DNA of 64,000 bases. It comes from an uncultured Candidatus Binatia bacterium (lineage in GTDB: Bacteria; Desulfobacterota; Binatia; UBA9968; JAJDTQ01). The stretch covers positions 2,048,001-2,112,000 of the forward strand of contig OZ251459.1 of NCBI GenBank assembly GCA_965242525.1, written 5' to 3'. Positions within the stretch are counted from its first letter, which is position 1; each line of letters starts with the position of its first letter. The notes beneath the pieces were generated by a model that worked only from the letters and a program-made list of their open reading frames with translations, ran no database searches and was not told the DNA's origin. Shown in pieces: positions 9,467-42,257 of this stretch. Both the position numbers and the translations under genes were made by a program.

Positions 9467-9473
9467 GAGCGCG

Positions 9474-20801: not shown

Positions 20802-21006
20802 GGAACGTCCGATCAATTCCGGCTCGAGGTCCTTCTCCCGGTGGGAAAGGGCGTCCTTCGACTTCGCTTCGCTACGCTCAGGACGAACGGAGGACTCGTT
20901 TTGCTACGCTCAGGATGAACGGAGGTTCGCTACTCTACGCTCAGGATGAGCGGAGGACTTCGCTTCGCTACCCTCGGGACGAACGGGGATATCGTTCAGG
21001 GTTTCC
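20802..21006. repeat. Family B element with four tandem degenerate cores
   Basis: Four copies of about 31-35 bp, CTACGCTCAGGA(C/T)GAACGG-like, head to tail between TIRs. Confidence 0.75.
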
Positions 21007-21176
21007 GGAAGCCGGTTTCAGGAAGATTTGGCCTATCGACCACGGAAAGGAGGGCTTGTCGTCAAGGAACCGACCATGCGGCCGGCGGCGACAGGCGAGA
21101 CCCGTTGAGCGCTGATACCACCATCCGGGAAGGACGGCTTCGACCTGTTCCTGACCCGGGAGAGAGTCGAGGCAGG

Positions 21177-24100
21177 TTGAGCGACGATACCACCATCCGG
21201 GAAGGACAGGTCCTGACCGGGCCGCTGTTCAGCGAGCCCATGCGGGTGGAGACCTTGCGGCCCATCGGGCCTGACGCCCTGGAAGCGGGGCTGGTGGGGC
21301 AGCGGACGGAACGGTTCCGGCGGGTCACGCTGACCGGGAGCGACCTGCGGGGACTGGCCATCGCCAACCCGTCTCCTTCCTACGACGGCGACGGAGGGCT
21401 GCTGCGGCTTGGGCTCCAGGCATACTCCCTGGGCATCGCCTACGAGTTCGACCCCTGTTTCGGGCTGTCCGTCTCGCGGGTGGACCCCCTGCCCCACCAG
21501 TTGGAAGCGGTCTATGACCATCTCCTCAAGCTCCCCAGCGTCCGGTTCCTGCTGGCCGACGACGCCGGCGCCGGCAAGACCATCATGGCGGGCCTGCTGG
21601 TGCGCGAGCTCAAGCTGCGCGGCCTGGTGGAGCGCGTCCTGGTGGTCTGCCCCGCGAACCTGACCTTCCAGTGGCAGCGGGAGCTCAGGGAGAAGTTCGA
21701 CGAGAAGTTTTCCGTGTTCAGGGGCAGCGACATCCACAACCAGTTCGGACTGAACCAGTGGATCGAACAGAGGCAGGTCATCACCTCCCTCGACTTGGCC
21801 AAGCGCTCCGACATCCTGCCGTCACTGCGCCAAGCGCATTGGGACCTGGTGATCGTGGACGAGGCCCACCGCATGTCGGCGCGGGACGAGACCCACAAGA
21901 GCCAGCGCTACCGGCTGGGGGAGATCCTCCGGGACAGCGCGGACAACGTGTTGCTGCTCACCGCCACCCCGCACAAGGGCGACCCCCACAACTTCACACT
22001 GTTCCTGCAACTGCTGGACCGGGACGCCTACGCCGACGTGCGCTCCATCCGAGAGGCCATGGAGCGGCGGCGCGCCCCCTTCTACCTGCGCCGGACCAAG
22101 GAGGCCATGTGCTACTTTCCGGAGCGCCGGACGGACGGGGGATGGGCCGCCAAGCCCGTGTTCACCAAACGCATCACGCACACCGCGGGCTTCGCCATGG
22201 ACGGCGCCGAGTTCGAGCTGTACCAGGCGGTCACCCGCTTCGTGAAGCGGCAGAGCGCCCGGGCCGCGGCCCAGGGCGACGACCCGCGGGCCCGGGCCGT
22301 GGGCTTCCTCATGTCGTTGTACCAGCGGCGTCTGGCCTCCAGCGCCTACGCCATGCGGCGGTCCCTGGAGAACCGGGCCCGACGCCTGGAGGAGGGCCTC
22401 GACCGCGCCCGGGAGCTGGCGCGAACGGCGCCGCCGGACCTTCCCGACCCGGAAGAACTGGAGGAGATGGAGGACGCCGAGCGCGAACGCCTGGAACGGC
22501 TGCTGGAGGCGGTCACGCTGGCGGGCAACGCCGAACAGGTCCGTGAGGAAGCGGCCGAACTCCGCCAGCTTGCCGAAGCGGCGAAGGCGGTCGAAGGCCC
22601 CGAAGGCCAGGCGAAACTGGGACGCCTCCGGGACATCATGCAGGACCAGGGGTTCTTCGACCGCCCCGACCAGCGGTTGCTGGTCTTCACCGAGTTCAGG
22701 GACACCCTGGACTACCTGACGGACCAACTGAAGGCGTGGGGGTTCAAGGTCGGGTGCATCCACGGCGGCATGAAGGGCGGCTCGCGGGACGAACCGGGCT
22801 CGCGGGTCCATGCGGAACAGCAGTTCCGGGACGGCGAAGTCCAGGTGCTGGTGGCCACCGAAGCGGCCGGCGAAGGCATCAACCTCCAGTGCTGCCACAT
22901 CCTCTTCAACTACGACATCCCCTGGAACCCCAACCGGCTGGAACAGCGCATGGGCCGCATCCACCGCTACGGACAGCGCTCGGACTGCCTGATCTTCAAC
23001 TTCGTGGCCGCCAACACCATCGAAGGCCGGGTGCTCCGGCGCCTGCTGGACAAGCTCCAGGAGATCCGCGACGCCCTGGACGACGACGCGGTGTTCAACG
23101 TGGTGGGCGAGGTCTTGCCCTCCGCCCACGTGGAGCGGGTGCTGCGGGACTACTACGCGGGCAGGCTGGGGGACGCCGACCTGGAGGACCGGCTCCTGAA
23201 GGACGTGGACGAAGGGCGCTTCCGGGCCATCTGCCAGACGGCCCTGGAGGGCTTGGCCGCCAAGAAGCTGGACCTGGACATGCTCGTGGAGCGCCGCGCC
23301 CGGGCACGGGAACGGCGCGTGGTGCCCGAGACCCTGGCGCGTTTCCTCGCCGCAAGCGCCCCCGAGGCGGGCCTCACCCTCGACTTGGCCCCCGGCCTGC
23401 CCCATACCTTCGACCCGGGCCGGACGCCCACCGCGTTGAAGCGCTACGAACGGGAACCGGACTGGAGGCTTCCGGGACTCGTCTCCCGCTACCCTCGCCT
23501 GTCCACGGACCGGGGCGCCGCGGAGGCGCGCCACCTGGAATGGGTCACTCCCGGCCATCCCCTGTTCGAGGCCCTGCGCCGCCACAGTTTCGACCTGGCC
23601 CGGGATGCCTTCGCCAAAGGGGCCTGCTTCCATTCCCTGGAGCACCAAGCCCCGGCGCGGCTCGACTTCTACCGGGCGCGGGTGGTGGACGGCCTGGGGC
23701 GCGTGGTCCACGAACGGCTGTTCGCCCTGGAGTTGGCGGACGGCCGCGAGCCGCGCCTCCGGGAACCCGACGTCCTCGGCAACCTGACCCCTGCCGCGGC
23801 TTCGCACCCCCTGCCCGCGGCGGCCGCGCTTCCCGAAGCCGCGGCGTGGCTCAACGAGCACGCGCTCACGCCATTCCTCCAGGAGGTCCGGGAGGAGCGG
23901 GTCACCGAGATCGACCGCATCGCCGAGCACGTGGAGATGTCGCTCACCGAGGTGCTGCAACGCACGGACCGGGAGATGGGCCACGCCGCGGAGGAGGCGA
24001 AGAAACAGGCCACCGGCGCCGAAGGACGCATGGCGCAGGCCTACGCCCGCCACGACGAGGCCACGGCCCGGCGCGACCGGCGCAGGCAGGAACTCGACCG

Positions 24101-24620
24101 GCAACGGGCGTTGACCCTCCAGGGGGTCGAGCGGCTGGCCAGCGTCCTGGTGCTGCCCCATCCCGACGGCGAGACCCCCGAAGTGCGGCGGCTGCGCCCC
24201 AACCCGGAGACCGAACACACCGCCATGCAGGTGGCCATGGAGCACGAGAAGGCCCAGGGCCGCCAAGTCTTCGACGTCCACGAGAAGAACCTGGGCTACG
24301 ACGTGACCAGCCTGGACCTGGTATCGGGCGAACTGCGGCTGATCGAGGTCAAGGGACTCGCCGGGGCCAGGGGCGCGGTCCTGCTCACCCCCAACGAGCG
24401 GCGCGTGGCCGAGGACCGCCGGGACTGCTACTGGCTCTACGTGGTCACGGACTGCGCCGCGGAACCGGCCTTGCAGGACCCCATCCGGGACCCGGCCCGC
24501 TTCCCCTGGCGCGAGGTCCGCAAGGTGGCCCATTACTACCTGGGCGTGGATGCCCTGAAGCAGCCCACGGAGGTCCGGGAGGATGCGCCGTCTTACGACG
24601 GAGAGGACGGGGCGTCCTGA
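21177..24620 (+). CDS. SNF2-family helicase with C-terminal DUF3883 (PD-(D/E)XK-like) domain
   Basis: PLPHQLEAVY, ADDAGAGKT, DEAH, LTATPH, EGINLQ, WNPNRLEQRMGRIHR, GYDVTS...IEVKG; TTG start uncertain because the 5' end is duplicated. Confidence 0.9.
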   Translation: MSDDTTIREGQVLTGPLFSEPMRVETLRPIGPDALEAGLVGQRTERFRRVTLTGSDLRGLAIANPSPSYDGDGGLLRLGLQAYSLGIAYEFDPCFGLSVSRVDPLPHQLEAVYDHLLKLPSVRFLLADDAGAGKTIMAGLLVRELKLRGLVERVLVVCPANLTFQWQRELREKFDEKFSVFRGSDIHNQFGLNQWIEQRQVITSLDLAKRSDILPSLRQAHWDLVIVDEAHRMSARDETHKSQRYRLGEILRDSADNVLLLTATPHKGDPHNFTLFLQLLDRDAYADVRSIREAMERRRAPFYLRRTKEAMCYFPERRTDGGWAAKPVFTKRITHTAGFAMDGAEFELYQAVTRFVKRQSARAAAQGDDPRARAVGFLMSLYQRRLASSAYAMRRSLENRARRLEEGLDRARELARTAPPDLPDPEELEEMEDAERERLERLLEAVTLAGNAEQVREEAAELRQLAEAAKAVEGPEGQAKLGRLRDIMQDQGFFDRPDQRLLVFTEFRDTLDYLTDQLKAWGFKVGCIHGGMKGGSRDEPGSRVHAEQQFRDGEVQVLVATEAAGEGINLQCCHILFNYDIPWNPNRLEQRMGRIHRYGQRSDCLIFNFVAANTIEGRVLRRLLDKLQEIRDALDDDAVFNVVGEVLPSAHVERVLRDYYAGRLGDADLEDRLLKDVDEGRFRAICQTALEGLAAKKLDLDMLVERRARARERRVVPETLARFLAASAPEAGLTLDLAPGLPHTFDPGRTPTALKRYEREPDWRLPGLVSRYPRLSTDRGAAEARHLEWVTPGHPLFEALRRHSFDLARDAFAKGACFHSLEHQAPARLDFYRARVVDGLGRVVHERLFALELADGREPRLREPDVLGNLTPAAASHPLPAAAALPEAAAWLNEHALTPFLQEVREERVTEIDRIAEHVEMSLTEVLQRTDREMGHAAEEAKKQATGAEGRMAQAYARHDEATARRDRRRQELDRQRALTLQGVERLASVLVLPHPDGETPEVRRLRPNPETEHTAMQVAMEHEKAQGRQVFDVHEKNLGYDVTSLDLVSGELRLIEVKGLAGARGAVLLTPNERRVAEDRRDCYWLYVVTDCAAEPALQDPIRDPARFPWREVRKVAHYYLGVDALKQPTEVREDAPSYDGEDGAS

Positions 24621-24641
24621 ACCGAGGTCGGAACGATGACG

Positions 24642-24772
24642 GGAACCTCTGAACAATCGGGAGAGAGCGTCCTTCGACTTCGCTTCGCTACGCTCAGGAC
24701 GAACGGGGATAGGGGCGTCAGGGTGAGGGAATCGGGAATCCATCCCGGATGTCTCGATTGTTCAGAGGTTCC
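24642..24772. mobile_element. Family B miniature element with perfect 18-bp TIRs
   Basis: GGAACCTCTGAACAATCG ... CGATTGTTCAGAGGTTCC. Confidence 0.85.
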
Positions 24773-24799
24773 GACGATAGCCGAGCACGAGGAGACCCG

Positions 24800-26048
24800 G
24801 TGATCGAGCGCGTGACCATACGGCATTTCAAACGGTTTCGGGACCAGAGCTTCGACTTGGCCGAATCGGTGGTGCTCGCCGGACCGAACAACGCCGGCAA
24901 GTCCACGCTGCTACAGGCCATAGCCGCCTGGAAGATGGGGCTGGACCGATGGGTGGCGCAGCGCGGGGGCAGCAAGGCGGCCACGCGGTCCGGCGTAGCC
25001 ATCACGCGCAACGACTTTACCGCAGTGCCGCTCCGCGAGATGAACCTGTTGTGGGAGGACCGGAAGGTGACCGGCCAGGCGGGGACGGCGGGAGCGCCCA
25101 GACCCATCGAGATCGTCGTCAGGGGAAAGGCCGGAGAGGCAACGTGGAACTGCGGGATGGAGTTCCAGTACGCCAACCGGGACCTGGTGTACGTGCGGCC
25201 CCGCGGCGCCAAGGACCTCGACCGCGAAGCCATCCGGAACTTTCCGCCCGCGGCTGCCAGGGACCTCGGCATCGTCCATGTGCCGCCGCTCTTCGGCATC
25301 GAGCGCGACGAGCCGCGGCGCGACCGCGGCATGCAGGACCTGCTGGTGGGTCAGGGGCGTCCGGGCGAAATCATCCGGAACCTCCTGCTGGAGATTGCCG
25401 AGAACGACCCGGAAGGCTGGCTGTCGCTCGGAGAGTTCTTCAGGGACCTCTTCCGTATCGACCTGCTGAAACCCGACTACTCGCCAGCGCAACCCTACAT
25501 CGTGTGCGAGTACCGCGAGCCGGACCATAGCCGGCCGCTGGACCTGTCCAACGCCGGGAGCGGAACGCTCCAGGTCCTGCTCCTGCTGGCGTTCCTGTAC
25601 GCGCGGCCGGCCACGGTCATCCTGCTCGACGAACCGGACGCGCACCAGCACGTCATCCTGCAACGACAGGTGTACGACCTGCTTCGCAAGGTGGCCCGGG
25701 ACCGCGGGGGGCAGGTGGTCATTGCCACCCACTCCGAGGTGGTGATCGACGCGACGGAGCCCACACGGGTGCTCGCGTTCCTGGGACAGGAGCCGCGCCC
25801 GCTCACCGACCGAAACGAACGAGACCGGCTCCGGGAGGCGCTCAAGCGGGTGACCACCAACCCTCGTGCCCCTTCTCGATGACATGGACCTCCCGACGCC
25901 CAAGCGGGATCTCTACCTGCTGGCCGAGAAGATGGCCGCGGAAGAAATCCACCCCGAAGTCATCGAGAAGCTGGACCGGCTGGCGGAGGTGCTGCTTCCC
26001 TCAAAGTTCGAGGCGGTTGGCAACGGTCACGGAGGACCGGACTCTTGA
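24800..26048 (+). pseudogene. OLD-like ABC ATPase; C-terminal (TOPRIM) region apparently deleted, leaving an out-of-frame tail at 25866-26048
   Basis: GAGGAG RBS; FKRF, GPNNAGKS, GSG, LLDEPDAHQH, ATHS; frame ends soon after LREALKRVTT; tail PKRDLYLLA...EIHPEVIEKLD. Confidence 0.7.
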
Positions 26049-27739
26049 CCCCTGAAAGCATCGAGGCGCTCATCCAAGGCGGCGAGACGCTTGCGGTGGA
26101 GTTCGAGGGGGAGGATGCCCGCCCCTTCTCCGACCGTGAGCTGGTCGAAACGGTCGTCTGTCTCGCCAACCGGAGCGACGACGGCGACGGCTGGCTGCTG
26201 GTCGGCGTCGAGGACGACGGGCGCGTGAGCGGCGCCCGGCCCCGCCATGAAGCAGGCGGGACCGACCCCGGACGGGTACGGGCCCTCGTCGCGAGCCGCA
26301 CCCGTCCGTCCCTCTCCGTCCGCGCCGAAGTGGTGGCGCTGGCAGGCCGGGAGGTCCTCGTCATCGAGGTCCCGTCCGTGCGCCAACCCACCGGCGTCTC
26401 GGACGGCCGCTACCTGCGCCGCGCCATCGGCGGGGACGGCAAGCCTTGCTGCGTCCCGTTCCACTTCCACGAGATGCAGGCGCAGCAGGCCGACCGCGGT
26501 CTGCTCGATTACTCGGCGCTGCGGCTGGACGGCGTCGGAACGGAGGCGCTGGACCCGCTGGAGTTCGAGCGCTTCCGCCGCATGATCCGGGAGAACCTGA
26601 GCTGCGGGGACGCGGCCCTGCTCGAACTCAGCGACCTGGAGCTCGCCAAGGCGCTGGGCGCAGTCGAATGCGGCAACGGCGAGGTCTCGGTCAGGGTTCT
26701 GGGACTCCTGCTCTTCGGTCGAACGGATGCCCTGGCTTCCATGCTTCCCGCGCACGAGGTCGCGTTCCAAATGCTTTCCGGCACGGAGGTGGAGGTCAAC
26801 GACTTCTTCCGCTGGCCCCTGCTCCGGGTCATGGAGGAGTTGGAGGCGCGCTTCCGGGCGCACAACCGGGAGCGGGAAATCTTCGTCGGGATGGTGCGCA
26901 TCGGAGTGCCCGATTACCCGGAGCGCGCCTTCCGCGAAGGCGTCGCCAACGCCTTGATCCACCGGGATTACACGAGCCTCGGCGCCGTCCACGTGCAGTG
27001 GCGGGAGGACCGGATGGAGATCTCGAACCCCGGCGGGTTTCCGTCGGGCGTGCGCCTGGACAACCTGCTGGTGACCGGACCGCGGCCCCGCAACCCGCTG
27101 TTGGCCGACGCCTTCAAGCGCGCCGGCATCGTGGAGCGCACCGCCCGCGGCATCGACACCATCTTCCACGAACAACTCCGCAACGGCCGCCCCGCACCCT
27201 CCTACGAACGCAGCACCGAGGCCGGCGTCACCCTGGCGCTGCCCGGCGGCGAACCCAACCTCGATTTCGTGCGTCTGGCAGCGGAAGAAGGACGACAGGG
27301 CCGGCCCCTCTCCCCGGATGAACTGCTGCTCCTGAACGCACTGGAGCGCGAGCCGCGGCTGACCGCCGTGCGGGCGGCTGCAACGATCCAGAGGGGAAAC
27401 GGCGAGGCGGAGGCCGTTTTGCGAAAGCTGTGCGAGCGCGGTATCGTCGAGGCCCGGGGCGCCGCTCCGCGGCAGACGTTCAGGCTCTCCGAAGCCGCTA
27501 TTCGGCGGCTCGGGGGCCGAAGGGCCGCTGGCGAGGGACGGGGGGCATCCGCTCGGCACGACGAGAAGATACGCCGGTACGTCGAGGAACACGGCTCGAT
27601 CTCGCGGAGGGAGGCCGCGGAACTCTGCGCCATCGACGCGCCTCGGGCCTACAGGTTGCTGAAGAAGATGGAGACGGACGGGGTTCTTCGCCGTGTCGGG
27701 ACCAACGGAAGGGGCGCTCGCTATGAAAGAAACGCATAG
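26045..27739 (+). CDS. Schlafen AlbA_2 + HATPase_c_4 + winged-HTH protein
   Basis: VEFEGE, CLAN, LLVGVEDDG, REGVANALIHRDY, SNPGGF, RNP, C-terminal HGSISRREAAELC. Confidence 0.85.
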   Translation: MTPESIEALIQGGETLAVEFEGEDARPFSDRELVETVVCLANRSDDGDGWLLVGVEDDGRVSGARPRHEAGGTDPGRVRALVASRTRPSLSVRAEVVALAGREVLVIEVPSVRQPTGVSDGRYLRRAIGGDGKPCCVPFHFHEMQAQQADRGLLDYSALRLDGVGTEALDPLEFERFRRMIRENLSCGDAALLELSDLELAKALGAVECGNGEVSVRVLGLLLFGRTDALASMLPAHEVAFQMLSGTEVEVNDFFRWPLLRVMEELEARFRAHNREREIFVGMVRIGVPDYPERAFREGVANALIHRDYTSLGAVHVQWREDRMEISNPGGFPSGVRLDNLLVTGPRPRNPLLADAFKRAGIVERTARGIDTIFHEQLRNGRPAPSYERSTEAGVTLALPGGEPNLDFVRLAAEEGRQGRPLSPDELLLLNALEREPRLTAVRAAATIQRGNGEAEAVLRKLCERGIVEARGAAPRQTFRLSEAAIRRLGGRRAAGEGRGASARHDEKIRRYVEEHGSISRREAAELCAIDAPRAYRLLKKMETDGVLRRVGTNGRGARYERNA

Positions 27740-28061
27740 AAACGCACCGCTCGACCAGAAGACGTTGGACGACGTTATCCGGCGGGTCGTCGGAGCGGCT
27801 CAACCGGAAAAGATCATCCTCTTCGGGTCCGCGGCCCGGGGCACCATGGGACCGGACAGCGACGTGGACCTCCTCGTCGTCAAAGAGGGCGCAGACCCCC
27901 TCGACCTCACGGCTCGGATCTACAGGAAGCTGTACGGGGTCGGCGTACCCGTCGATGCCATCGTCGTCACCCCCGCGGACATGGAGCGCTTCAAGGACAG
28001 TCACGCCCTGGTCATCAAACCCGCTCTCCGGGAGGGACGGGTCGTATATGAAGCCGCCTGA
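27723..28061 (+). CDS. Minimal nucleotidyltransferase (MNT antitoxin)
   Basis: IILFGSAARG...DSDVDLLVV, VD. Confidence 0.9.
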   Translation: MKETHRNAPLDQKTLDDVIRRVVGAAQPEKIILFGSAARGTMGPDSDVDLLVVKEGADPLDLTARIYRKLYGVGVPVDAIVVTPADMERFKDSHALVIKPALREGRVVYEAA

Positions 28062-28440
28062 ACGTTTTCCGCCCGATGATCCGCGGGAATGGTTGAATCG
28101 CGCCAGAAGCAACTTGGCGTTGGCGGAGACTCGTACCGCCGGCGTCTATCTGGAAGACCTGTGTTTCGAGGCCCAGCAGGCGGCAGAGAAGGCCATCAAG
28201 TCGGTGATGATAAAGCGTAACCTCGAATATCCCTACCTGCATGACTTGTCTCACCTGTTGTCGCTCCTTGAAGAAGCAGGCGAGACGATCCCGGACATGG
28301 TCCGCAAGGCCGGGGAATTGGCTCCATATGCGGTGAGCATACGCTATCCCGGAACTACCAGACCAGTCGCCGTACACGAGTACGAGAAAGTGATCGAGAT
28401 TGCTGCGGCCGTCGTCCGGTGGGCTGAGAGAGTCCGATGA
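28048..28440 (+). CDS. HEPN domain protein (toxin partner)
   Basis: EWLNRARSNL, CFEAQQAAEKAIK, HDL, RYP; overlaps the MNT stop. Confidence 0.9.
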   Translation: MKPPERFPPDDPREWLNRARSNLALAETRTAGVYLEDLCFEAQQAAEKAIKSVMIKRNLEYPYLHDLSHLLSLLEEAGETIPDMVRKAGELAPYAVSIRYPGTTRPVAVHEYEKVIEIAAAVVRWAERVR

Positions 28441-28456
28441 CACCCGAACAATGCAA

Positions 28457-28589
28457 GGAACTTCTGAACAATCGAAACAGAGGCAAGAGCCCGTCCTTCG
28501 ACTCCGCTTCGCTACGCTCAGGACGAACGGGGATAGGACGGTCAGGGTGAGGGAATCCATCCGGGATGTCTCGATTGTTCAGAGGTTCC
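28457..28589. mobile_element. Family B miniature element
   Basis: GGAACTTCTGAACAATCG...CGATTGTTCAGAGGTTCC. Confidence 0.82.
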
Positions 28590-28598
28590 ACAAGCAGG

Positions 28599-28726
28599 TC
28601 TTCGCCGTGTCCGGGTCATCGAAGGGGCTCTCGCCACGAAAGAAACACACGGAAACGCACACCGTGCGTTTCCTGAACACATCTGTGCGTTTAACGCGTG
28701 CGTTTCATCGGACAGCCGTGCGTTTC
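28599..28726. repeat. Degenerate duplicate of the AlbA gene 3' end followed by a GAAACGCAC/GTGCGTTT motif array
   Basis: 28599-28660 resembles 27685-27747; GTGCGTTT at 28664, 28685, 28698, 28718. Confidence 0.75.
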
Positions 28727-28800
28727 CATAGGGTTCAAGCGGCGAGGTTCCGAACGCTCTCCGACCGATATCCCGTTCGCCTGCTTGCAGACGGGTAAGG

Positions 28801-28908
28801 GGAACTCTGAACGGTTGCCCCCGTTCGTCCTGAGCGTAGCGAAGCGAAGTCGAAGGACGCGCTTTCCCACAGGGAGAGGAAGTTCAAGCCGGGATTGATC
28901 CGAGGCTC
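28801..28908. repeat. Family B element directly upstream of the methyltransferase
   Basis: GGAACTCTGAAC end and GTTCGTCCTGAGCGTAGCGAAGCGAAGTCGAAGGACG core. Confidence 0.7.
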
Positions 28909-28923
28909 ACAAGGATTCGATTT

Positions 28924-31962: not shown

Positions 31963-31980
31963 GCAAGAGGAACAGTCGCC

Positions 31981-33276: not shown

Positions 33277-33280
33277 GCCG

Positions 33281-33934: not shown

Positions 33935-33984
33935 AAACACCGGACGCCCCCCGGCGGTGCTAAGGCAAAGCAAGGGTTAGTCCC

Positions 33985-35328
33985 ATGGACCGGATCACAC
34001 TGAAGAACTTCCGCTGCTTCCGCGAGGAGCAGACCGCCCGCCTTGCGCCCCTGACCCTGCTCGTGGGCGAGAACAGCACCGGCAAGACCTCCTTCCTGGC
34101 CCTGATCCGCGCACTGTGGGACGTGGCCTACCGGTCTCGCGTTCCCGACTTCAAGGAAGACCCCTATGATCTCGGCAGCTTCGACGAGATCGCCCATCAC
34201 CGGGGAGCACGGGGAAGCAGAGCAGAGACCTTTGAGGGCGGGTTTGATGTTACCCTGGAGAAAGGACGAAGTGAACTGACAAACCGCTATCGGTTCGAGG
34301 CAACCTTTGGGAAAGAGGGCGTCGTTCCCGTTCCCGTGAGGAGGTTTCTTTCCGATATGGATAAGACTGGTTGGGTCGAATATGGCTCTCAAGAAGATCC
34401 AATCCGTTTCGGCACCACCAGGGGCGCTTGGGCGTGGAAAGATCTGGATGGTTTCAACCGTCAATTGAAAAAGGATGACCGCGTACTTCCGTTCTACCAC
34501 CTTGTTATGAGCAGATACCGACGAAGAACACCCCTTGATCTGACGACGCTGGACGGCCCAAAACAACCAAGCAGCAATGATTGGAAAGTGATCGACCTGA
34601 TTTGCGATGCTATGGCCTCCTTCATCAACTTCCCGGAGCGGCTGTATGCTGGCGCTCCGGTCCGCTCCAAGCCGCGCCGAACATATGACCCTTCACGTAC
34701 CACACGAGACCCTGAAGGCGATTACGTCCCGATGTATCTTGCCCATGTACACTTTCAGGACAAGGAAAAATGGAACAGACTCAAAATTGCCCTCGAAAAC
34801 TTTGGGAAGGCATCCGGCCTCTTCAACGAAATATCGGTGAAGCCTTTGGGCCACAAGGAAAGCGGACCCTTTCAGATACAGGTCAGGGGGTTCGGGAAAG
34901 CGAGGCGAAAAGGACCGCAACGGAACCTGATCGACGTGGGCTATGGCGTCAGCCAAGTACTGTCGGTTATCATCGAACCCCTACGTAGCGACGCCCCGCA
35001 AAGGTTTCTGCTGCAACAGCCCGAAGCGCACCTCCACCCCAGCGCCCAAGCTGCTCTCGGAAGCCTGTTCTGCCAAATCGCCGGACCGGAACGTCAACTG
35101 GTGGTCGAAACGCACAGCGACCACCTGATCGACCGTGTACGCATGGACGTGCGCGACGGCAAGACAAAACTGAAACCCGAAGATGTTTCCATTCTGTACT
35201 TCGAGCGGAACGATTTGGATGTACACATCCATTCCTTGCGTTTCGATGAAGACGGGAATGTCCTGGACGCTCCCGATGGCTATCGTCAATTCTTTCTGGA
35301 AGAAACGCGAAAATCCCTGGGGCTGTAG
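33985..35328 (+). CDS. ABC-type ATPase with DUF3696-like C-terminus
   Basis: NFRCF, GENSTGKT, DVGYGVSQVL, QQPEAHLHP, ETHSDHL, FDEDG..P.G..FF. Confidence 0.85.
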   Translation: MDRITLKNFRCFREEQTARLAPLTLLVGENSTGKTSFLALIRALWDVAYRSRVPDFKEDPYDLGSFDEIAHHRGARGSRAETFEGGFDVTLEKGRSELTNRYRFEATFGKEGVVPVPVRRFLSDMDKTGWVEYGSQEDPIRFGTTRGAWAWKDLDGFNRQLKKDDRVLPFYHLVMSRYRRRTPLDLTTLDGPKQPSSNDWKVIDLICDAMASFINFPERLYAGAPVRSKPRRTYDPSRTTRDPEGDYVPMYLAHVHFQDKEKWNRLKIALENFGKASGLFNEISVKPLGHKESGPFQIQVRGFGKARRKGPQRNLIDVGYGVSQVLSVIIEPLRSDAPQRFLLQQPEAHLHPSAQAALGSLFCQIAGPERQLVVETHSDHLIDRVRMDVRDGKTKLKPEDVSILYFERNDLDVHIHSLRFDEDGNVLDAPDGYRQFFLEETRKSLGL

Positions 35329-35331
35329 AAG

Positions 35332-35383
35332 ATGTGTGCAATCTTCCGTCGCAGTCATCGGGACATGCTGAGAAGGAACCCCC
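35332..35383 (+). pseudogene. Possible collapsed partner gene (MCAI|FRRSHRDMLRRN)
   Basis: ATG 3 nt after the ATPase stop; resembles, from recall only, the joined N- and C-termini of small PIN-like partners of such ATPases. Confidence 0.35.
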
Positions 35384-36505
35384 ATGCCAAACTTGATCGA
35401 ATCCATACACATCAGAGGCTTCCGCTCCCTTGCGGACGTGGAAATCAACGAACTGCCCCGGGCCGCGGTGCTGATAGGAGGCAACGGCTCCGGCAAGTCC
35501 AACGTCATTCGCTTCTTCGAGATGCTGAGCTGGATGCTGCGGTCTCGCCACCTGGGTGACTTCATAGAGCGGCACGGAGGCGCTGACAACCAGTTGTTCG
35601 GCGGGAGCAGGGTCACCGCCCGCATGGAGGCCACACTGACCATGCGCACCCCGGTGGGTCGAAACGACTATCGGTTCGCGCTCGCTCACGTCCACCCGGA
35701 CCGTTTCATCTTTGCGGACGAGGCGTTCCGCTTCAGCCGGGACGATCATCCCGACGAAGCCGAGTGGCAACACCTTGGGGGCAGCCATTCGGAAGCGAAG
35801 ATCGTCGAGGCCGCGCAATCGCCCCAGTTCGGGGGCAATCGGACCACGGCGCGGGTCCTCCTCCATCTCCTGCGCAACTGCGCAGTCTATCAGTTCCAGG
35901 ACACCTCCGACCGATCCGGTTTCAATATCCGATGGGACGCAGAGGACAATAACTACCTCCGTTCGGACGGGAGCAACCTGGCCGCGGTGCTGCTCCGCCT
36001 GGAACGCGAAGACCCTCAACGCTTCGAGACGATCTGCCGCCACGTCGAACGGGTGCTGCCGGTCTTCGACCGTTTCCGGATCGAAGACCGCTATGGAAAA
36101 GCCCTGCTCGGATGGAAGGCCAAGGGGATGGACAAGACCTTTGGCGCGCACCTGACCTCCGACGGCTCGCTGCGTCTCTTCGCCCTGGTGACGCTGCTGA
36201 ACCTCCCGCCCGATATGCTGCCCGACGTCATCCTGCTGGACCAGCCGGAGTTGGGGCTGCATTCCGCGGCAATCACCCTGCTGGGCAGCATGATCCGGTC
36301 GCTCTCCACGGACAGGCAGATCATCGTGGCAACCCAATCCCCCCTGCTCGTGGACGGGTTCGATCTCGACCAGATCCTGGTGCTGGACCTGCACGAGGGC
36401 CGGACGGAGGTCCGCCGGCTCGACGAAAACGACTACCGCCACTGGCTGGAAGAATACACGACAGGCGAACTGTGGCAGAAGAAGCTGCCTGGGGGGCGCC
36501 CGTGA
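35384..36505 (+). CDS. ABC-type (AAA_21) ATPase, paralog A, Walker B DQP
   Basis: GGNGSGKS, SDGS, LLDQPELGLHS, ATQSP. Confidence 0.88.
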   Translation: MPNLIESIHIRGFRSLADVEINELPRAAVLIGGNGSGKSNVIRFFEMLSWMLRSRHLGDFIERHGGADNQLFGGSRVTARMEATLTMRTPVGRNDYRFALAHVHPDRFIFADEAFRFSRDDHPDEAEWQHLGGSHSEAKIVEAAQSPQFGGNRTTARVLLHLLRNCAVYQFQDTSDRSGFNIRWDAEDNNYLRSDGSNLAAVLLRLEREDPQRFETICRHVERVLPVFDRFRIEDRYGKALLGWKAKGMDKTFGAHLTSDGSLRLFALVTLLNLPPDMLPDVILLDQPELGLHSAAITLLGSMIRSLSTDRQIIVATQSPLLVDGFDLDQILVLDLHEGRTEVRRLDENDYRHWLEEYTTGELWQKKLPGGRP

Positions 36506-36623
36506 TCCATCTCGATACCGAAAGCCTCTTGACGGTCCTCTGGCAGCAACGCAGGTTGGCTTGGCCGCGATCCGCGCGCAATACCCGCGCTTCAACGATT
36601 GGGTGAGGCGCCTGGAATTGTAG
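36502..36623 (+). pseudogene. DUF4276 partner reduced to its first codons and 3' end
   Basis: GTGATCC start as at 37773, joined directly to sequence matching about 38296-38400 (CCTCTTGACGG...TTCAACGATTGGGTGA.GCGCCTGGA). Confidence 0.88.
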
Positions 36624-36654
36624 TTTACAAGCGCCTGCTTAGCAGGAAAAATCT

Positions 36655-37776
36655 ATGCCGAACCTGATTGACTCCATCCACGTCAAAGGCTTCCGCTCCC
36701 TGGCGGACGTGGAAATCAATGAACTGCCCGGGGCCGCGGTGCTGATAGGATGCAACGGCTCTGGCAAGTCCAACGTCATTCGCTTCTTCGAGATGCTGAG
36801 CTGGATGCTGCGGTCTCACCGTCTGGGTGATTTCATGGTACGGCAGGGCGGTGCTGACGACCAGTTATTCGGTGGGAGCAAGGTCACTTCCCGTATAGAC
36901 GCCACACTGACCATACGTACCGAGGTAGGTCAAAACGATTATCAATTTGCACTCGATCACGTCCCCCCAGACCGCTTCGTCTTTGCGAAAGAGGCATTCC
37001 GCTTCAGTCGAGAGAATCATCCTCCCGAACCCGACTGGCAGCACCTTGGAAGCGGCCATTCGGAAGCGAAGATCGTCGAGGCAGCACAATCGTCCCAATT
37101 CGAGGGCAATCAGACGACAGCACGGGTCATCCTCCATTTACTACGCGGTTGCGCGGTCCATCAGTTTCACGACACCTCTGACCGATCGAATTTTAAGCTC
37201 AGCGGGGACGTGGATGAAAATAACTACCTCCGTTCGAACGGGAGTAATCTGCCCGCGATACTGCTCCGCTTGGAACGCGAAGACTTCCGACGTTTCGAGA
37301 TGATCTGCCGCCACATCAGCCGGGTACTGCCGGTCTTCGACCGCTTCCAGATCGAAGAGAGCTATGGAAAAGTTCTGCTCAGATGGAAAGCCAAGGGGAT
37401 GGATAAGACCATTGGGGCGCACTTGACCTCCGACGGCTCCCTGCGTTTCTTCGCCCTGGTGACGCTGCTGAACCTCCCACCGGAGATGCTGCCCGACGTC
37501 ATCCTGCTGGACGAGCCGGAGTTGGGGCTGCATCCCGCGGCGATCACCCTGCTGGGCGCCATGATCCGGTCGCTCTCCACGGACAGACAGATCATCGTAG
37601 CAACCCAATCCCCCTTGCTCGTGGACGGGTTCGATCTCGACCAGATTCTGGTGCTGGACCTGCAGGAGGGCCGGACGGAGATCCGCCGGCTCGACGAAAA
37701 CGACTACCGCCACTGGCTGGAGGAATACACGACGGGCGAACTGTGGCAGAAAAACCTGCTTGGAGGGAATCCGTGA
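36655..37776 (+). CDS. ABC-type (AAA_21) ATPase, paralog B
   Basis: Collinear 373-aa twin of 35384-36505; LLDEPELGLHP intact. Confidence 0.9.
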   Translation: MPNLIDSIHVKGFRSLADVEINELPGAAVLIGCNGSGKSNVIRFFEMLSWMLRSHRLGDFMVRQGGADDQLFGGSKVTSRIDATLTIRTEVGQNDYQFALDHVPPDRFVFAKEAFRFSRENHPPEPDWQHLGSGHSEAKIVEAAQSSQFEGNQTTARVILHLLRGCAVHQFHDTSDRSNFKLSGDVDENNYLRSNGSNLPAILLRLEREDFRRFEMICRHISRVLPVFDRFQIEESYGKVLLRWKAKGMDKTIGAHLTSDGSLRFFALVTLLNLPPEMLPDVILLDEPELGLHPAAITLLGAMIRSLSTDRQIIVATQSPLLVDGFDLDQILVLDLQEGRTEIRRLDENDYRHWLEEYTTGELWQKNLLGGNP

Positions 37777-38411
37777 TCCGTCTCGCCCTTTCGGTAGAAG
37801 GTCTAACTGAGGAGGAGTTCGTCAAGTCCGTCCTTGCCGACCACCTGTGGACAGCGAAGGTTTATGCAATTCCGGTCAAGCTTGGCCGTGCTCGCGGTAG
37901 CGGTCCTGACGGCGGCAACGTCAGCGTTAAACGACTCGTCTCGGACATGAGCCTCCTGTACTGGTCCTTTGATTTCGTGACCTCACTCGTCGATTTCTAC
38001 GGATTTCGCGACAAGGGAAAAATGACGGTAGAGGAATTGGAGGAACGTCTCACCCGGGAAATCCAAGCTCAAATCCCTCGCGGTTGGGACCAGAGAAGGG
38101 TAATTGCCTATGTTCAGAGACATGAGTTCGAGGGTCTGCTGTTCTCGGACGTCACGGCGTTCGGAACCTCGATAGACGCATCGAACCAAAGCATAACGCA
38201 ACTTCAAGAGACTCGTTCAGCATTTCCGACGCCGGAAGACATCAACGACAACAAAGAAACGGCGCCGAGCAAGCGTATCGCGAAAGCCATATCGACATAC
38301 CAAAAACCTCTTGACGGCCCCCTGGTGGCAATGCAGATTGGCTTGGATAAGATCCGCGCACAATGTCCGCGGTTCAACGATTGGGTGACGCGCCTGGAGA
38401 CCCTGGCGTGA
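37773..38411 (+). CDS. DUF4276 TOPRIM-fold protein (intact)
   Basis: VEGLTEEEFV, LVDFYG, HEFEGLLFSD, PEDIND, APSKR, CPRFNDW; GTGA-coupled to the ATPase. Confidence 0.88.
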   Translation: MIRLALSVEGLTEEEFVKSVLADHLWTAKVYAIPVKLGRARGSGPDGGNVSVKRLVSDMSLLYWSFDFVTSLVDFYGFRDKGKMTVEELEERLTREIQAQIPRGWDQRRVIAYVQRHEFEGLLFSDVTAFGTSIDASNQSITQLQETRSAFPTPEDINDNKETAPSKRIAKAISTYQKPLDGPLVAMQIGLDKIRAQCPRFNDWVTRLETLA

Positions 38412-39363
38412 CCGTGCCCATGCTTCACAGGTTGTCCCTGCTCCATTTCCGAAGTCTTCCGGCTGCGGAATTGGAGTTCGACAACCCGACCTTTCTGGTG
38501 GGCCAGAACGGCGCCGGAAAGAGCAAACGAGATGCAACGGTCAACGAAACTGCTTCGACCGCTCGGAAGGCACATGGAAGAGCAGCGAAAAATCCTTGGA
38601 TCCGGCCTTGGAATCACGGTCCTTGGCCCTTCCGGTAGTCGCAGGCGACACGCGGTTTGCTGCGGTATGGCGGTTTCTGTCGGAGATGCGGGTGTACCGG
38701 ATCGAACCGGGTGTCCTCCGAGAGATGCAGGACCCGGATGGCGGGGGCCGGCTGCGAATCGACGGAAGCAACGCCGCGAGCGTGCTGCGCGAGATCATGC
38801 GCGATTCGCCGGACGACTGGGAGAACATCCGCGGCCTTCTCGAAAGTATCGTCCCCGGCGTGATGGACGTGAAACCGAAGAAGCTCGGCAACAAACTGGG
38901 GCTGGAGTTCACGCAGGAATGGCTGACGTCGAGACCCCTCAAGTTCGAGGCGTACAACATGTCCGACGGAACGTTGCGAGTCTTGGGCATGCTTGCCGCA
39001 GTCTTTCAACGGCCGGCGCCCTCGGCCCTGGTCATCGAAGAGCCGGAAGCCACGATACATCCCGGAGCGCTCGGCTCGGTGCTCGACCTGCTGCGACACG
39101 CAGGGCGCTTTACCCAGACGGTGGCGACGACCCACAGCCCGGATATTCTCGACGCCTCATGGATCGAGGATCGCCATCTACGGATCGTAGGCTGGGACCG
39201 GGGAGCGACACAGGTAGCGCCCGTCTCCGAACCTGTACGCAAGGCGCTGAAAGAGCACCTGATGGGCGCAGGGGAGATGATGCGCTCCAACGCCCTGACG
39301 GCCGCCGAAGGGTCCAACCCCGACCCGGCCGCAATCTCGTTGTTCGAGGATGTTGCCGAATGA
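38408..39363 (+). pseudogene. ABC-type ATPase broken by an internal deletion/frameshift just after Walker A
   Basis: MLHRLSLLHFRS...GQNGAGKS in one frame; DGSNAAS, MSDGT, IEEPEATIHP, TTHSP in another. Confidence 0.85.
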
Positions 39364-39455
39364 TGATCCAACCCCGCGCCTTCGGCGCCCTGCTGCGCGC
39401 AATGGGGCGGGAAGTGGCCCCGTGGCCTCCTCCCGCCTGGAGGGAGGAGGTGTAG
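39360..39455 (+). pseudogene. Collapsed partner gene (31-aa in-frame mini-ORF)
   Basis: ATGA overlap; MMIQP|RAFGALLRAMGREVAPWPPPAWREEV*; stop abuts the DUF499 ATG. Confidence 0.6.
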
Positions 39456-42257
39456 ATGGACCCCTGGTACAAGGTCGTCACTCCCCGCAAGGAGGTCCGC
39501 GAAGGCCGGTCGTTCAGCCCGGACGAGTTCGCCATTGCGCTGGAACAGGTGGTGGCCGGGACCGCGCCGCCGGACTACCGGGACCCGGCGCAGTTCTTCT
39601 CGCGCACCTGCTTCACCCGGGCCTTGACGGATCATTCCGGCATGGTGCTGCGGCGCCTGGCCGGACGGACCGAGAACACCGCCCCGGTGCTGACCCTGAT
39701 TACCCAGTTCGGCGGCGGCAAGACGCATACGCTGACCTCCCTCTACCACCTGGCCCGGTCCGGGGCCGGCGCGTCCGGGCTGCCCGGGGTCCCGGGGCTG
39801 TTGCGCGACGCGGGCATGGCCGAAGCTCCGGCCGCCCGGGTCGGCGTCTTCGTGGGCAACGCCTGGGACCCCGCGGAGGGGCGGGAGACGCCTTGGATCG
39901 ACTTGGCGCGCCAGCTTGCCGGCGACGCGGGGGCGGCCGCCCTCGGCCCCTCGGCCAGGGACACGCCGCCGGGGACCGAAGCGCTGGCCAAGGTGTTTGC
40001 GGCCGCGGGGGCGCCGGTGCTGCTGCTGTTCGACGAGGTGCTGAACTTCGTCAACCGCCACCGGGGCATGGCCGAGGGCTTCCATGCCTTCGTACAGAAC
40101 CTGACGGTGGCGGTCACCGGCGCGACCCGGGCCGCGGCGGTCATCAGCCTGCCGCGCAGCCAGGTGGAGATGACCGACTGGGACCAGCAGTGGCAGGACC
40201 GGCTCACCAAGGTGGTGCGCCGGGTGGCACGGGACTTGATCGCCAACGACGAGGCCGAGATCGGCGAGGTGGTGCGCCGCCGGCTGTTCGAGGACCTGGG
40301 CCCGGAGCGCGCCCGCAGGAAGGTCGCCCGGACCTATGCGGACTGGTGCTTCGAGCGCACCGCCCGGCTGCCCGCGGAGTGGACCGCGGTGGACGCCGCG
40401 GCCGAGACCCGGGCGCGGGACTTCCTGCGCGGGCGGTTCGAGGGCTGTTACCCCTTCCATCCGGCCACGCTGTCGGTGTTCCAGCGCAAGTGGCGCGCGC
40501 TGACGCAGTTCCAGCAGACCCGCGGCACGCTGGCCATGCTGGCCCAGTGGATCTCCTGGGCGGCCCGGGAGGGCTTCCAGCAGGCCCGGCGGGAGCCGCT
40601 CATCACCCTGGGGTCGGCGCCGCTGCATGTGCCGGAGTTCCGCGCCGTCCTCCTCGGCCAACTGGGCGAGTCGCGGCTCGACACCGCCATCGACGCGGAC
40701 TTGGCAGGGCTGGCCCCGCGCGCCAGGGCGCTGGACGTGGACACCCGAGGGCCGCTCCGGGACATCCATCGCCGGGTAGGCGCGACGATCCTGTTCGAGT
40801 CGTCCGGCGGGCAGGTGGACAAGGTGGCCCACCTGCCGGAGTTGCGCTTCGCCCTCGGTGAACCGGAAGTCGATACCACCTCCATCGACAGCGCCGCGGC
40901 GGCCCTTGAAGCCGCGGGGTTCTTCATCCGCAAGGTCGGCTCCGACGGTTTCCGCATCCACCACCAGGCGACCCTGAAGAAAGTGGCCAGCGACCGGCGC
41001 GCCTCCCTGGACGAGGAAACGGAGATCAAGCCCGCCATGCGGAAGCTGATCGAGGGCGCGTTCCAGCGCGGGGCCAGCGTGCCGCTGGTCCTCTTTCCGC
41101 AGGACGGCGCCGCGGTCCAGGATTCGCCCCGGCTGACGCTGGTGGTGGTGGACCCGGACGTGGAATGGGAGGGCCGGGGCGTCGAGCGCATCCGCAGGTG
41201 GACCACCGAGCGCGGCTCCTCCCCGAGGCTGTACCCGGGCGCGCTGGTGTGGTGCGCCAAGAAGCCGGGACGGGAACTGCGGGAACGGGTCGCCACTTGG
41301 CTGGCCTGGGAGCGCGTGGCCGGAGAGATGGCCGAAGGCGTCCTTGGCGCCGAGTTCGACCGGAGGGAACGCGACGAGTTGCGGTCCAAGGTCAGGGAGG
41401 CGAAGGAAGAGGCCGTGGACGAGGTGTGGGCCGGCTACCGCTTCGCGACGTTGACCGACGCCAAGGCGGAGACCGGCCTCAAGACCCTGGACCTGGGCGC
41501 GGGCCACGCCAGCGCCAGCGACACGCTGTGCGGGCGGGTGATCGGGACCTTGAAGGCCGAGGCCCTGCTGAACGAGTCGGTGGGGGCCGGCTACATCGAC
41601 CGGAACTGGCCGCCGGCCTTCGAGGGCACGGGGGCCTGGCCCCTGGCCGGCCTGCGCCAGAGCTTCCTGAACGGCTCGTTGACGCGGCTGCTGGACCCGG
41701 ACGCGGTTCTTCGCCGGAAGGTGGTCGAGTTCGTGGCCAACGGAGACTTCGGCTTGGCTTCCGGGGAAAGCGGCAACGGCCGATACCGGAGGGTGTGGTA
41801 CCAGGAGCCGGTGGCCCCGGAAGAGGTGGCCTTCGAGTCGAACGTCTTCCTGCTGGGCAAGGCCAGAGCCGAAGCGCTTCGAGCGCCCGAGACCCCGCCC
41901 GAGCCGCAACCCGATCTTCCTCCGGACCGGGACGACCGCCCCGAATTGAAGCCGGACCCCGATCCCGACACCCGGCCCGTCTCGCCCCCCGCGCAGACCG
42001 GGGGCGAGACGACGTTGCGGCTCACCGGCGTCGTGCCCCTCGAAGCGTGGAACAAGGTCGGGATCCGAATCCTGCCGAAGCTCCGGTCCGGCAACGATCT
42101 GAGCCTGGGCATCGAGTTCTCCGTGAACGTCGAGTCACGACTCTCCGGGAACCTGGAGTCGGAATTGAAACAGGCCCTCGCCGAACTCGGCCTCGGGGAC
42201 CAGGTGGACATCAAGAGCCGGGACCGAGGTTCCGAAGATGACCGAAAGACTCATTGA
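39456..42257 (+). CDS. DUF499 AAA+ ATPase (COG1483-like)
   Basis: PWYKVVTPR, FA..L, TQFGGGKTH, FDE, VVRRRLF, YPFHP, FQQTRG.L. Confidence 0.92.
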   Translation: MDPWYKVVTPRKEVREGRSFSPDEFAIALEQVVAGTAPPDYRDPAQFFSRTCFTRALTDHSGMVLRRLAGRTENTAPVLTLITQFGGGKTHTLTSLYHLARSGAGASGLPGVPGLLRDAGMAEAPAARVGVFVGNAWDPAEGRETPWIDLARQLAGDAGAAALGPSARDTPPGTEALAKVFAAAGAPVLLLFDEVLNFVNRHRGMAEGFHAFVQNLTVAVTGATRAAAVISLPRSQVEMTDWDQQWQDRLTKVVRRVARDLIANDEAEIGEVVRRRLFEDLGPERARRKVARTYADWCFERTARLPAEWTAVDAAAETRARDFLRGRFEGCYPFHPATLSVFQRKWRALTQFQQTRGTLAMLAQWISWAAREGFQQARREPLITLGSAPLHVPEFRAVLLGQLGESRLDTAIDADLAGLAPRARALDVDTRGPLRDIHRRVGATILFESSGGQVDKVAHLPELRFALGEPEVDTTSIDSAAAALEAAGFFIRKVGSDGFRIHHQATLKKVASDRRASLDEETEIKPAMRKLIEGAFQRGASVPLVLFPQDGAAVQDSPRLTLVVVDPDVEWEGRGVERIRRWTTERGSSPRLYPGALVWCAKKPGRELRERVATWLAWERVAGEMAEGVLGAEFDRRERDELRSKVREAKEEAVDEVWAGYRFATLTDAKAETGLKTLDLGAGHASASDTLCGRVIGTLKAEALLNESVGAGYIDRNWPPAFEGTGAWPLAGLRQSFLNGSLTRLLDPDAVLRRKVVEFVANGDFGLASGESGNGRYRRVWYQEPVAPEEVAFESNVFLLGKARAEALRAPETPPEPQPDLPPDRDDRPELKPDPDPDTRPVSPPAQTGGETTLRLTGVVPLEAWNKVGIRILPKLRSGNDLSLGIEFSVNVESRLSGNLESELKQALAELGLGDQVDIKSRDRGSEDDRKTH

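Follow-up and report, generated by a model that had tools for sequence, protein, structure and literature searches.

We examined a 64,000-nucleotide stretch of the genome of an uncultured Candidatus Binatia bacterium (contig OZ251459.1; this whole stretch is called the window, and positions are counted from its first letter), in which a run of co-oriented open reading frames (ORFs) on the plus strand, from 20946 to 42257, forms a predicted defense locus. Judged from its gene products, the core of the locus is an Hma system, also known as a Type-1 DUF499-centered bacteriophage exclusion (BREX)-related (BR) system, made up of hmaA, hmaB, and hmaC. A total of 11 cargo genes lie between the core genes, 4 in the hmaA-hmaB interval and 7 in the hmaB-hmaC interval, and 6 of them code for ATP-binding cassette (ABC) ATPases. 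On alignment with their homologues, four of these ABC genes are relics from which the nuclease domain or partner gene has been deleted, one of them also being frameshifted. To go by intact ORFs and motifs, the probably working cargo consists of an MNT-HEPN pair, a Schlafen-type protein, and two HEC-01 pairs (HEC, Hma-embedded candidate; HEC-01, an ABC ATPase with a TOPRIM protein; bioRxiv 10.1101/2024.01.29.577857). Because intact pairs stand beside relics, we read the array as the outcome of serial gain and then effector-first decay, not as six stacked working guards, and we consider it likely that the locus is an Hma system whose two intervals are recombination sinks and whose cargo has this history.

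Protein families were assigned with Pfam, PADLOC, and NCBIfam profiles, and all genes described below are on the plus strand unless stated otherwise. The first core gene, hmaA (21177 to 24620), encodes a Snf2 helicase with a C-terminal NOV_C/PD-(D/E)xK nuclease domain; it matched SNF2-rel_dom (E value, 9e-17), Helicase_C (6e-25), and NOV_C (DUF3883; 4e-20) in Pfam and the HmaA profile in PADLOC (6.2e-165; profile positions 7 to 1130 of 1176), and it carries GAGKT and DEAH motifs and a C-terminal D...ExK nuclease motif. Its frame is open from 20946, and the alignments with homologues begin at about residues 27 to 85. The product of hmaB (28924 to 31962) is a DUF1156 N6-adenine methyltransferase (DUF1156, 7e-22; PADLOC HmaB, 5.1e-99) with a DPPY motif at residue 551; it does not belong to the NCBIfam equivalog DUF1156_antiphage, against which it scored 172.6 bits for a cutoff of 1000. 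The third gene, hmaC (39456 to 42257), encodes a DUF499 AAA+ ATPase of 933 amino acids (DUF499, 5e-13; PADLOC HmaC, 1.2e-87), of which residues 1 to 812 align to profile positions 3 to 817 of 941 and in whose translation a GGGKT P-loop is found. All three are uninterrupted ORFs and share a strand, the helicase gene coming first, the methylase gene second, and the ATPase gene last. The assignment to Hma was made because of these profile matches, the catalytic motifs, and the intact ORFs, and it bears out the original prediction of three large, co-oriented, intact genes (helicase-DUF3883, DPPY methyltransferase, and DUF499 ATPase) that belong to a restriction-modification or BREX-related system. 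From what is known of these families, HmaB would mark the cell's own DNA by adenine methylation, the DUF499 ATPase HmaC would help to recognize foreign DNA, and HmaA, as a Snf2 helicase with a PD-(D/E)xK nickase domain, would attack that DNA.

Relatives of the locus were collected with an HmaB scan that kept one genome per species, in which 500 were confirmed and the best 80 were retained. These 80 span many phyla, and the two closest among them are Candidatus Binatia metagenome-assembled genomes (L006 and L007), whose proteins are 90% (HmaA), 79 to 80% (HmaB), and 86 to 89% (HmaC; 86% in L007 and 89% in L006) identical to those of the window.

The hmaB-hmaC interval (7493 bp) holds seven genes and one gene stub, and at two places in it a HEC-01A gene is directly followed by HEC-01B (31981 to 33934 and 36655 to 38411). 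In the first pair, the ABC ATPase HEC-01A-2 (31981 to 33276; PADLOC PDLC04182, 4.1e-183) is 82 to 87% identical to its counterparts in L006 and L007, and its TOPRIM-like partner, HEC-01B-2 (33281 to 33934; PDLC04205, 1.5e-86; DUF4276), has the invariant Glu residues of the family alignment. In the second pair, HEC-01A-5 (36655 to 37776; PDLC04175, 9e-118) has a canonical Walker B motif, and HEC-01B-5 (37773 to 38411; DUF4276, 3.6e-49; PDLC04188, 2.2e-64) overlaps the preceding gene via GTGA. The predicted structure of HEC-01B-5 (predicted local distance difference test score, 90.4; 14-sequence alignment) had as its five best matches in the PDB only C-terminal TOPRIM regions of OLD proteins (E values, 1e-4 to 9e-4), with no others at an E value of ≤0.001, and the modeled protein has a TOPRIM fold. 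Such pairs would combine an OLD-type ABC ATPase as sensor with a TOPRIM nuclease, in a PARIS-like logic.

The other three ABC genes of this interval are without a nuclease partner. ABC3 (33985 to 35328; NsnB, 2.8e-47) is an NsnB/HEC-03-like ATPase with AAA_15 and DUF3696 domains, and a PIN gene of 154 to 161 amino acids follows its homologues in four of four cases (L006, L007, L011, and L064); here, no PIN gene follows and just 55 nt separate ABC3 from the next gene, so that it does not make up a HEC-03-like module or an OLD-ABC module with a PIN partner. HEC-01A-4 (35384 to 36505; PDLC04175, 9.5e-113) is an orphan, 82% identical to HEC-01A-5, in which Gln has replaced the Walker B Glu and Ser a conserved Pro; neither change is shared by any other of the 11 family members. 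No HEC-01B gene directly follows HEC-01A-4; instead, repeat comparison and the junction sequences identified a HEC-01B-4 stub (36502 to 36625), in which the first few codons run straight into the final ∼100 nt of the gene (36515 to 36616 is 83% like 38297 to 38398). The last ABC gene, pseudo-HEC-01A-6 (38408 to 39363), is broken, as seen from comparison of its frames, its homologues, and other contigs: the Walker A part lies in one frame (38408 to 38526) and the remainder in another (to 39363), and ∼85 residues are missing through a frameshifting deletion of 244 bp at 38526|38527. HEC-01B follows five of the six homologues of HEC-01A-6, and none follows HEC-01A-6 here.

A similar loss is seen in the hmaA-hmaB interval (4303 bp), which holds ABC1, a Schlafen/AlbA_2 protein, MNT, and HEPN. 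ABC1 (24797 to 25882; AAA_21 and AAA_15) is the ATPase-only remnant of a fused ABC-ATPase-TOPRIM-like gene. It stops a few residues past the point from which all three of its homologues (561 to 587 amino acids; L008, L064, and L079) run on for a further ∼205 amino acids with Glu and DxD-type motifs. With tblastn, homologue residues 7 to 377 were found in a single frame up to 25861, and residues ∼505 to 586 were found in a second frame at 25863 to 26012 (E values, 1e-11 to 2e-15). Because the two pieces are in different frames, we infer that ∼154 residues were removed by an out-of-frame internal deletion; the out-of-frame C-terminal remnant of the ancestral gene extends from 25863 to 26048, and the stop of the ancestral frame overlaps the start of the AlbA_2 gene by 4 nt. 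The protein encoded by that gene (26045 to 27739) has AlbA_2, HATPase_c_4, and winged-helix domains (Pfam) and is 92% identical to its counterpart in L006, whose gene immediately follows hmaA; in L020, L028, and L048, too, homologues come after hmaA. The antitoxin-like MNT nucleotidyltransferase (27723 to 28061, with the start read from the sequence; PADLOC PDC-S09, 2.4e-11) scored 34.7 bits against NCBIfam MntA, which is under the cutoff of 60, and its gene overlaps by 14 nt that of the HEPN protein (28048 to 28440; Pfam HEPN, 7.9e-24; 84.5 bits, over the cutoff of 22). The two genes are a candidate type VII toxin-antitoxin (MntA/HepT) pair.

The AlbA_2 protein and the MNT-HEPN pair had been anticipated in the original prediction, and ABC-type sequence does occur at all six positions where it had placed ABC ATPases, but the sixth is broken and the first is an internal-deletion derivative. 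TOPRIM-like partners were likewise found for two of the ATPases (HEC-01B/DUF4276, with HEC-01B-5 matching the OLD TOPRIM) but not for the other four. The tight packing that had been described holds within the hmaB-hmaC interval, where genes are separated by 18, 4, 50, 55, 149, and 92 nt or overlap by 4 nt, but not at the hmaA-ABC1 gap (180 nt) or the HEPN-hmaB gap (484 nt).

The same prediction took the six ABC modules to be guards stacked on one methylation-based system; in such a model, each would sense a different phage inhibitor of Hma and then trigger a nuclease. The genes are indeed co-oriented and tightly packed, two HEC-01 pairs are complete, the number of ABC genes is higher than in any of 73 relatives, and there are published analogies in PrrC with EcoprrI and PARIS with Ocr (bioRxiv 10.1101/2024.01.29.577857; PMC12839542). 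Nevertheless, this arrangement of six working guards seems to us quite unlikely, given that the nearest homologues of four of the six modules have a nuclease domain or partner which these modules lack, one of these four is frameshifted, one ATPase (HEC-01A-4) is without the catalytic Glu of Walker B, HEC-01 provided no defense in its sole published test, and the tie between the modules and inhibition of Hma is one of analogy.

A different possibility, which we also hold to be unlikely, is that the ATPase-only genes have been retained by selection. They might form a common sensor bank that signals in trans to the two TOPRIM effectors still present, or they might be decoys or dampers to which phage triggers or partner proteins bind with no killing of the cell. 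Three of the four keep intact ORFs, and their ratios of nonsynonymous to synonymous substitution (dN/dS) against orthologues are 0.18 to 0.34, where those of the core genes are 0.23 to 0.30. Further, the HEC-01A-4 orthologue in L006 is also partnerless, in both genomes the gene is followed by five identical codons from the start of the lost partner gene, and the close similarity of HEC-01A-4 to HEC-01A-5, whose partner is intact, would favor such cross-pairing. A Walker B Glu-to-Gln change in ABC ATPases generally traps the ATP-bound state, and HEC-01A-4 would then be a natural ATP-locked variant. On the other hand, the losses may be younger than most of the divergence that was measured, and a related strain keeps an undeleted sixth gene (see below), so at least the loss in HEC-01A-6 is recent; moreover, cross-pairing is itself conjectural, and the last of the four is clearly a broken gene. 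If selection has in fact retained the orphan sensors, they would be modules that were disarmed and not discarded, and such a division of labor between sensor and helper is not yet described for OLD-ABC systems.

We also considered whether the array could be an assembly artifact, with variants of one module from different strains joined in a row and with frameshifts that stem from sequencing errors. The tandem HEC-01A copies, at 82% identity, would fit this, as would the stretch from 36374 to 36788 (the junction of HEC-01A-4 and HEC-01A-5), which is bridged by none of the contigs listed; the evidence that the two copies are adjacent is the assembly itself together with their equal depths. Eleven public sequencing runs from five studies hold part of 33900 to 39500, and two of these (X7 and X8) may derive from the sample of origin. 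Contigs from X7 and X8 had 0 differences from the window and bridged the junctions among ABC1, AlbA_2, MNT, and HEPN, the ABC3/HEC-01A-4 junction, and 37692 to 39725, including the break in HEC-01A-6. Both HEC-01A copies (HEC-01A-4 and HEC-01A-5) were found in runs of three studies. Their depths were 10.5 and 12.3 in run X1 (flanks, 12.1 and 10.3) and 30.5 and 34.2 in run X2 (flanks, 34.9 and 36), and this equality argues against two alleles merged into a false tandem. In addition, the deletions measure 244 to ∼460 nt, unlike single-base errors. An artifact is therefore highly improbable.

Run X2, from another study, further yielded a contig that is ∼97% like the window and has an additional 244 letters at precisely the point where 38526 and 38527 meet. 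Thus, the 244-bp frameshifting deletion belongs to the window's strain and is absent from a sister strain. Past 39374, this contig continues with 693 letters unlike the window.

It is important to note the points that weigh against our reading of gain followed by effector-first decay. The defense function of the locus is predicted from sequence, and in the one published test, HEC-01 gave no protection (bioRxiv 10.1101/2024.01.29.577857), so that a protective role is putative even for the two complete pairs. The open frames and dN/dS of the three effector-less ATPases fit continued function as well as they fit recent loss. Nuclease parts make up roughly one-third of the sequence in the four modules concerned and were removed in four of five deletion events (P ∼0.04), but this excess comes from a post hoc count only. 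The unbridged junction between HEC-01A-4 and HEC-01A-5 belongs here as well.

Comparison with the relatives shows both intergenic intervals to be recombination sinks, in which self-contained defense modules have time and again been inserted, exchanged, and deleted. The order and strand of hmaA, hmaB, and hmaC were kept in all 70 A-B pairs and all 62 B-C pairs of the 80 loci, and the intervals between them differed widely (A-B: median, 1346 bp; range, 0 to 8097 bp; B-C: median, 914 bp; range, 54 to 5994 bp). The original prediction had regarded the interval between the methylase and the DUF499 ATPase as an expandable slot; its content does vary, but the A-B interval varies too, and the slot is not that interval alone. 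With a 10-kb flank limit that censors longer intervals, the B-C interval of the window exceeded those of all 62 relatives, and its summed intervals (11.8 kb) were second to those of L006 (12.1 kb) among 59 loci.

The tabulation of neighborhoods in relatives that had been proposed as a check showed variable slot content, with 312 slot ORFs falling into 151 clusters, of which 150 cluster representatives were scanned. The slot ATPases of relatives included several HEC-01 subtypes and NsnB-like, OLD-like, Septu-type, PDC-M38, and Ppl-like proteins. Other cargo consisted of Dsr2, SIR2 with HerA, Cas10/Cmr, ThsB-like TIR proteins, AbiU, toxin-antitoxin pairs, HEC-06, HEC-08, HEC-09, and a type II methylase. 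Among the 73 relatives with a bounded slot, 51 had no ABC-ATPase ORF, 12 had one, 6 had two, 3 had three, and 1 had four, compared with 6 in the window. The commonest cargo was a pair of DUF433 and DUF5615 (PIN-like) genes, with 24 and 20 members.

The three Candidatus Binatia loci hold a common block of HEC-01A/B-2, ABC3 (with PIN in L006 and L007), and HEC-01A, and the final HEC-01A of the block has a partner gene that is missing in L006 and split over two frames in L007. Homologues of ABC1 and HEC-01A-6 were found, among the best 80 relatives, only in other phyla and at other slot positions. Divergence from L006 was also uneven: synonymous divergence (dS) was 0.15 for hmaA, 0.19 for AlbA_2, 0.21 for hmaC, 0.22 for HEC-01A-4, 0.47 for hmaB, and 0.85 for ABC3. 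GC content is 0.58 to 0.64 across 28 to 39 kb and 0.63 in hmaB, with 0.70 to 0.71 in hmaA and hmaC and ∼0.68 in the window. Given the uneven dS and the drop in GC, we consider the locus a recombination mosaic.

The ideas of an expandable slot and of back-up guards are already published (bioRxiv 10.1101/2024.01.29.577857; PMC11232893; PMC12839542). In the preprint of Payne, Hughes, Fineran, and Jackson (bioRxiv 10.1101/2024.01.29.577857), 931 of 1485 Hma systems had embedded genes, of which ABC ATPases were the commonest family and 96.7% were co-oriented, and its discussion proposes a genomic sink and a back-up triggered by anti-defense proteins. The present locus has the same hmaA-hmaB-hmaC core, nested co-oriented genes, and ABC/TOPRIM cargo of the HEC-01 type, which is the most frequent cargo in that data set. 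It differs from the loci of that screen, which was limited to ≤3 embedded genes per interval, in having four and seven genes in its intervals and six ABC genes, and also in its four effector-less modules, a pattern not met with in the parts of the preprint consulted.

In a later study (PMC12839542; Nucleic Acids Research, 2026), Hma was renamed the Type-1 DUF499-centered BR system. Our locus shares with that description the DUF499 ATPase, the DUF1156 N6-methyltransferase, and the Snf2 helicase with a C-terminal active PD-(D/E)xK nuclease, but its 933-residue HmaC, which matches from profile position 3, is without the N-terminal HEPN fusion. According to the study, BREX and BR systems of at least 1242 taxa have OLD-ABC modules whose partner is a TOPRIM, PIN, or HNH protein; HEPN-MNT pairs occur as well, and Schlafen-kinase-wHTH (winged helix-turn-helix) proteins are present in at least 1017 taxa. 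It places OLD-type ABC modules with TOPRIM or PIN partners, HEPN-MNT pairs, and Schlafen-kinase-wHTH proteins within core loci or next to them, and in this the present locus agrees with it. The auxiliary modules that it describes are single, whereas this locus has a decaying array of six.

PARIS-like modules are read in the same study as countermeasures to Ocr. As in PARIS (AriA/AriB), an OLD-family ABC ATPase is followed here by a TOPRIM-fold nuclease, with the proposed logic of a sensor that releases or activates a nuclease. However, the ATPases best match HEC-01A (E-113 to E-183) and reach just E-24 to E-35 with AriA, and the partners matched DUF4276/HEC-01B only, with no AriB family in the profile searches. 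The likeness to PARIS is thus one of architecture and fold and not of family membership.

The hma locus has also been named a hotspot for insertion of defense genes (PMC11232893; Microbial Biotechnology, 2024), and in that work Halomonas HmaA alone defended Escherichia coli against T4 by means of Snf2 motif VI and the NOV_C nickase. Among Hma systems, antiphage activity is on record only for this HmaA and T4. The Halomonas meridiana system, which carries Septu, resembles ours as an insertion hotspot and in an HmaA with Snf2 and NOV_C nickase domains, the D...ExK motif being present here as well. It has one inserted system (PtuAB) and an experimentally proven HmaA, whereas the present locus has eleven inserted genes and is known from its sequence.

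With Hma, embedded systems, and the guard hypothesis all in print, the locus opens no new category. What it adds is an array with more embedded ABC ATPases than in any relative sampled, a pattern in which effectors decay first, and a polymorphism between strains, and it weakens the strong form of the guard hypothesis. It also offers a natural series, since the window, L006, and L007 share a core array and differ by dated gains and losses, the sister strain keeps the undeleted sixth gene, and the genome itself has three further DUF499 systems. Questions raised by the locus are whether embedded modules are maintained or are passing through, whether toxic nuclease effectors are lost first, and whether screens limited to ≤3 embedded genes per interval miss the largest arrays.

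Several observations on the slots of relatives can be added. The DUF433 and DUF5615 pair sits directly after hmaB in the B-C slot of 20 to 24 relatives (for instance, L056:12966-13358 and L043:14361-14756); PADLOC has no model for the pair, which is present in L006 and absent from the window. A type III CRISPR effector set (Cas10 and Cmr1/3/4/5-like proteins) lies between hmaA and hmaB at L057:1270-8521. In L007, hmaB was matched as two pieces ∼1.3 kb apart (L007:11539-12818), and there appears to be an insertion within the gene.

The long spacers of the hma locus are occupied by copies of a repeat resembling repetitive extragenic palindromic (REP) sequences or miniature inverted-repeat transposable elements. 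A genome-wide count of its 26-base core gave 761 occurrences (350 forward and 411 reverse; ≤3 mismatches), and the reversed control gave 0. In the window, copies were found at 18124 to 18173, 20803 to 21013, 24631 to 24772 (between hmaA and ABC1; repeat families D2, D11, and D16), 28446 to 28589, and 28818 to 28908 (inverted), and none lies within 28924 to 42257; both the hmaA-ABC1 gap and the HEPN-hmaB gap hold copies. The spacer upstream of hmaB (28446 to 28908) contains, between its two REP copies, a duplicate of the AlbA_2 3′ end (∼28590 to 28665) and repeats of a 9-nt motif. Read as a whole, 28590 to 28730 is a diverged duplicate of the AlbA_2 3′ end and the MNT start, followed by four copies of the motif, two of which pair as a perfect 10-bp stem; this element may represent an operator or the scar of an insertion. 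We rejected the direct repeats at 24631 to 24772 and 28446 to 28589 as insertion scars, as the motif is present 761 times in the genome, and read joints such as 24662>28482 and 24706>28502 were set aside as repeat noise whose sides are just 22 to 33 letters within repeats.

Two further ORFs were not accepted as genes. The ORF at 28400 to 28798 (132 amino acids) had no match in Pfam, PADLOC, or NCBIfam and lies over repeat copies, and that at 38532 to 39455 (307 amino acids), before hmaC, had no family match and is a wrong frame over the broken HEC-01A-6. Scans of 23000 to 42900 gave 1 promoter-like site (shuffle mean, 2.1) and 8 terminator-like sites (shuffle mean, 15.4) and were uninformative on operon structure; the sole sigma-70-like match (36624 to 36652), which is not above chance, is just upstream of HEC-01A-5.

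The neighbors of the locus are ordinary genes: upstream are an asparaginase gene and a gene of the endonuclease/exonuclease/phosphatase family, and downstream is a gene of the xanthine-dehydrogenase type. Just after hmaC, on the minus strand, 42741 to 46610 encodes a 1289-amino-acid protein (GC, 0.585) with a Top1-type zinc ribbon, a DUF559 nuclease-like domain, and a RecQ/DpdF-like helicase domain. Elsewhere in the window (6920 to 10697), a PHP and ABC ATPase gene is followed by one for an AlbA_2 and HATPase_c_4 protein. The hma slot of L064 contains a Ppl-like gene to which the former is 76% alike, and both L045 and L064 have this pair of genes inserted between hmaA and hmaB.

The three further DUF499 systems of the genome each have embedded ABC ATPases. 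L086 (C1:1478500-1498400) has a HEC-01A-like gene between hmaB and hmaC; L087 (C1:3745000-3764999) has HEC-01A/B, HEC-06, and a PD-T4-4-like ATPase; and L090 (C1:1421000-1440900), of the PLD-helicase type, has two Septu pairs (PtuAB) and a Menshen trio (NsnABC). Two paralogues of HmaB, L088 (C1:1634813-1638175) and L089 (C1:2202489-2205884), have no HmaA or HmaC nearby. They are 91 to 94% identical to the HmaB of the window over residues 1 to 272 and 78% identical over residues 464 to 1012, whereas the L006 orthologue is 80% identical; because the paralogues are the closer ones, this hints at exchange between HmaB paralogues.

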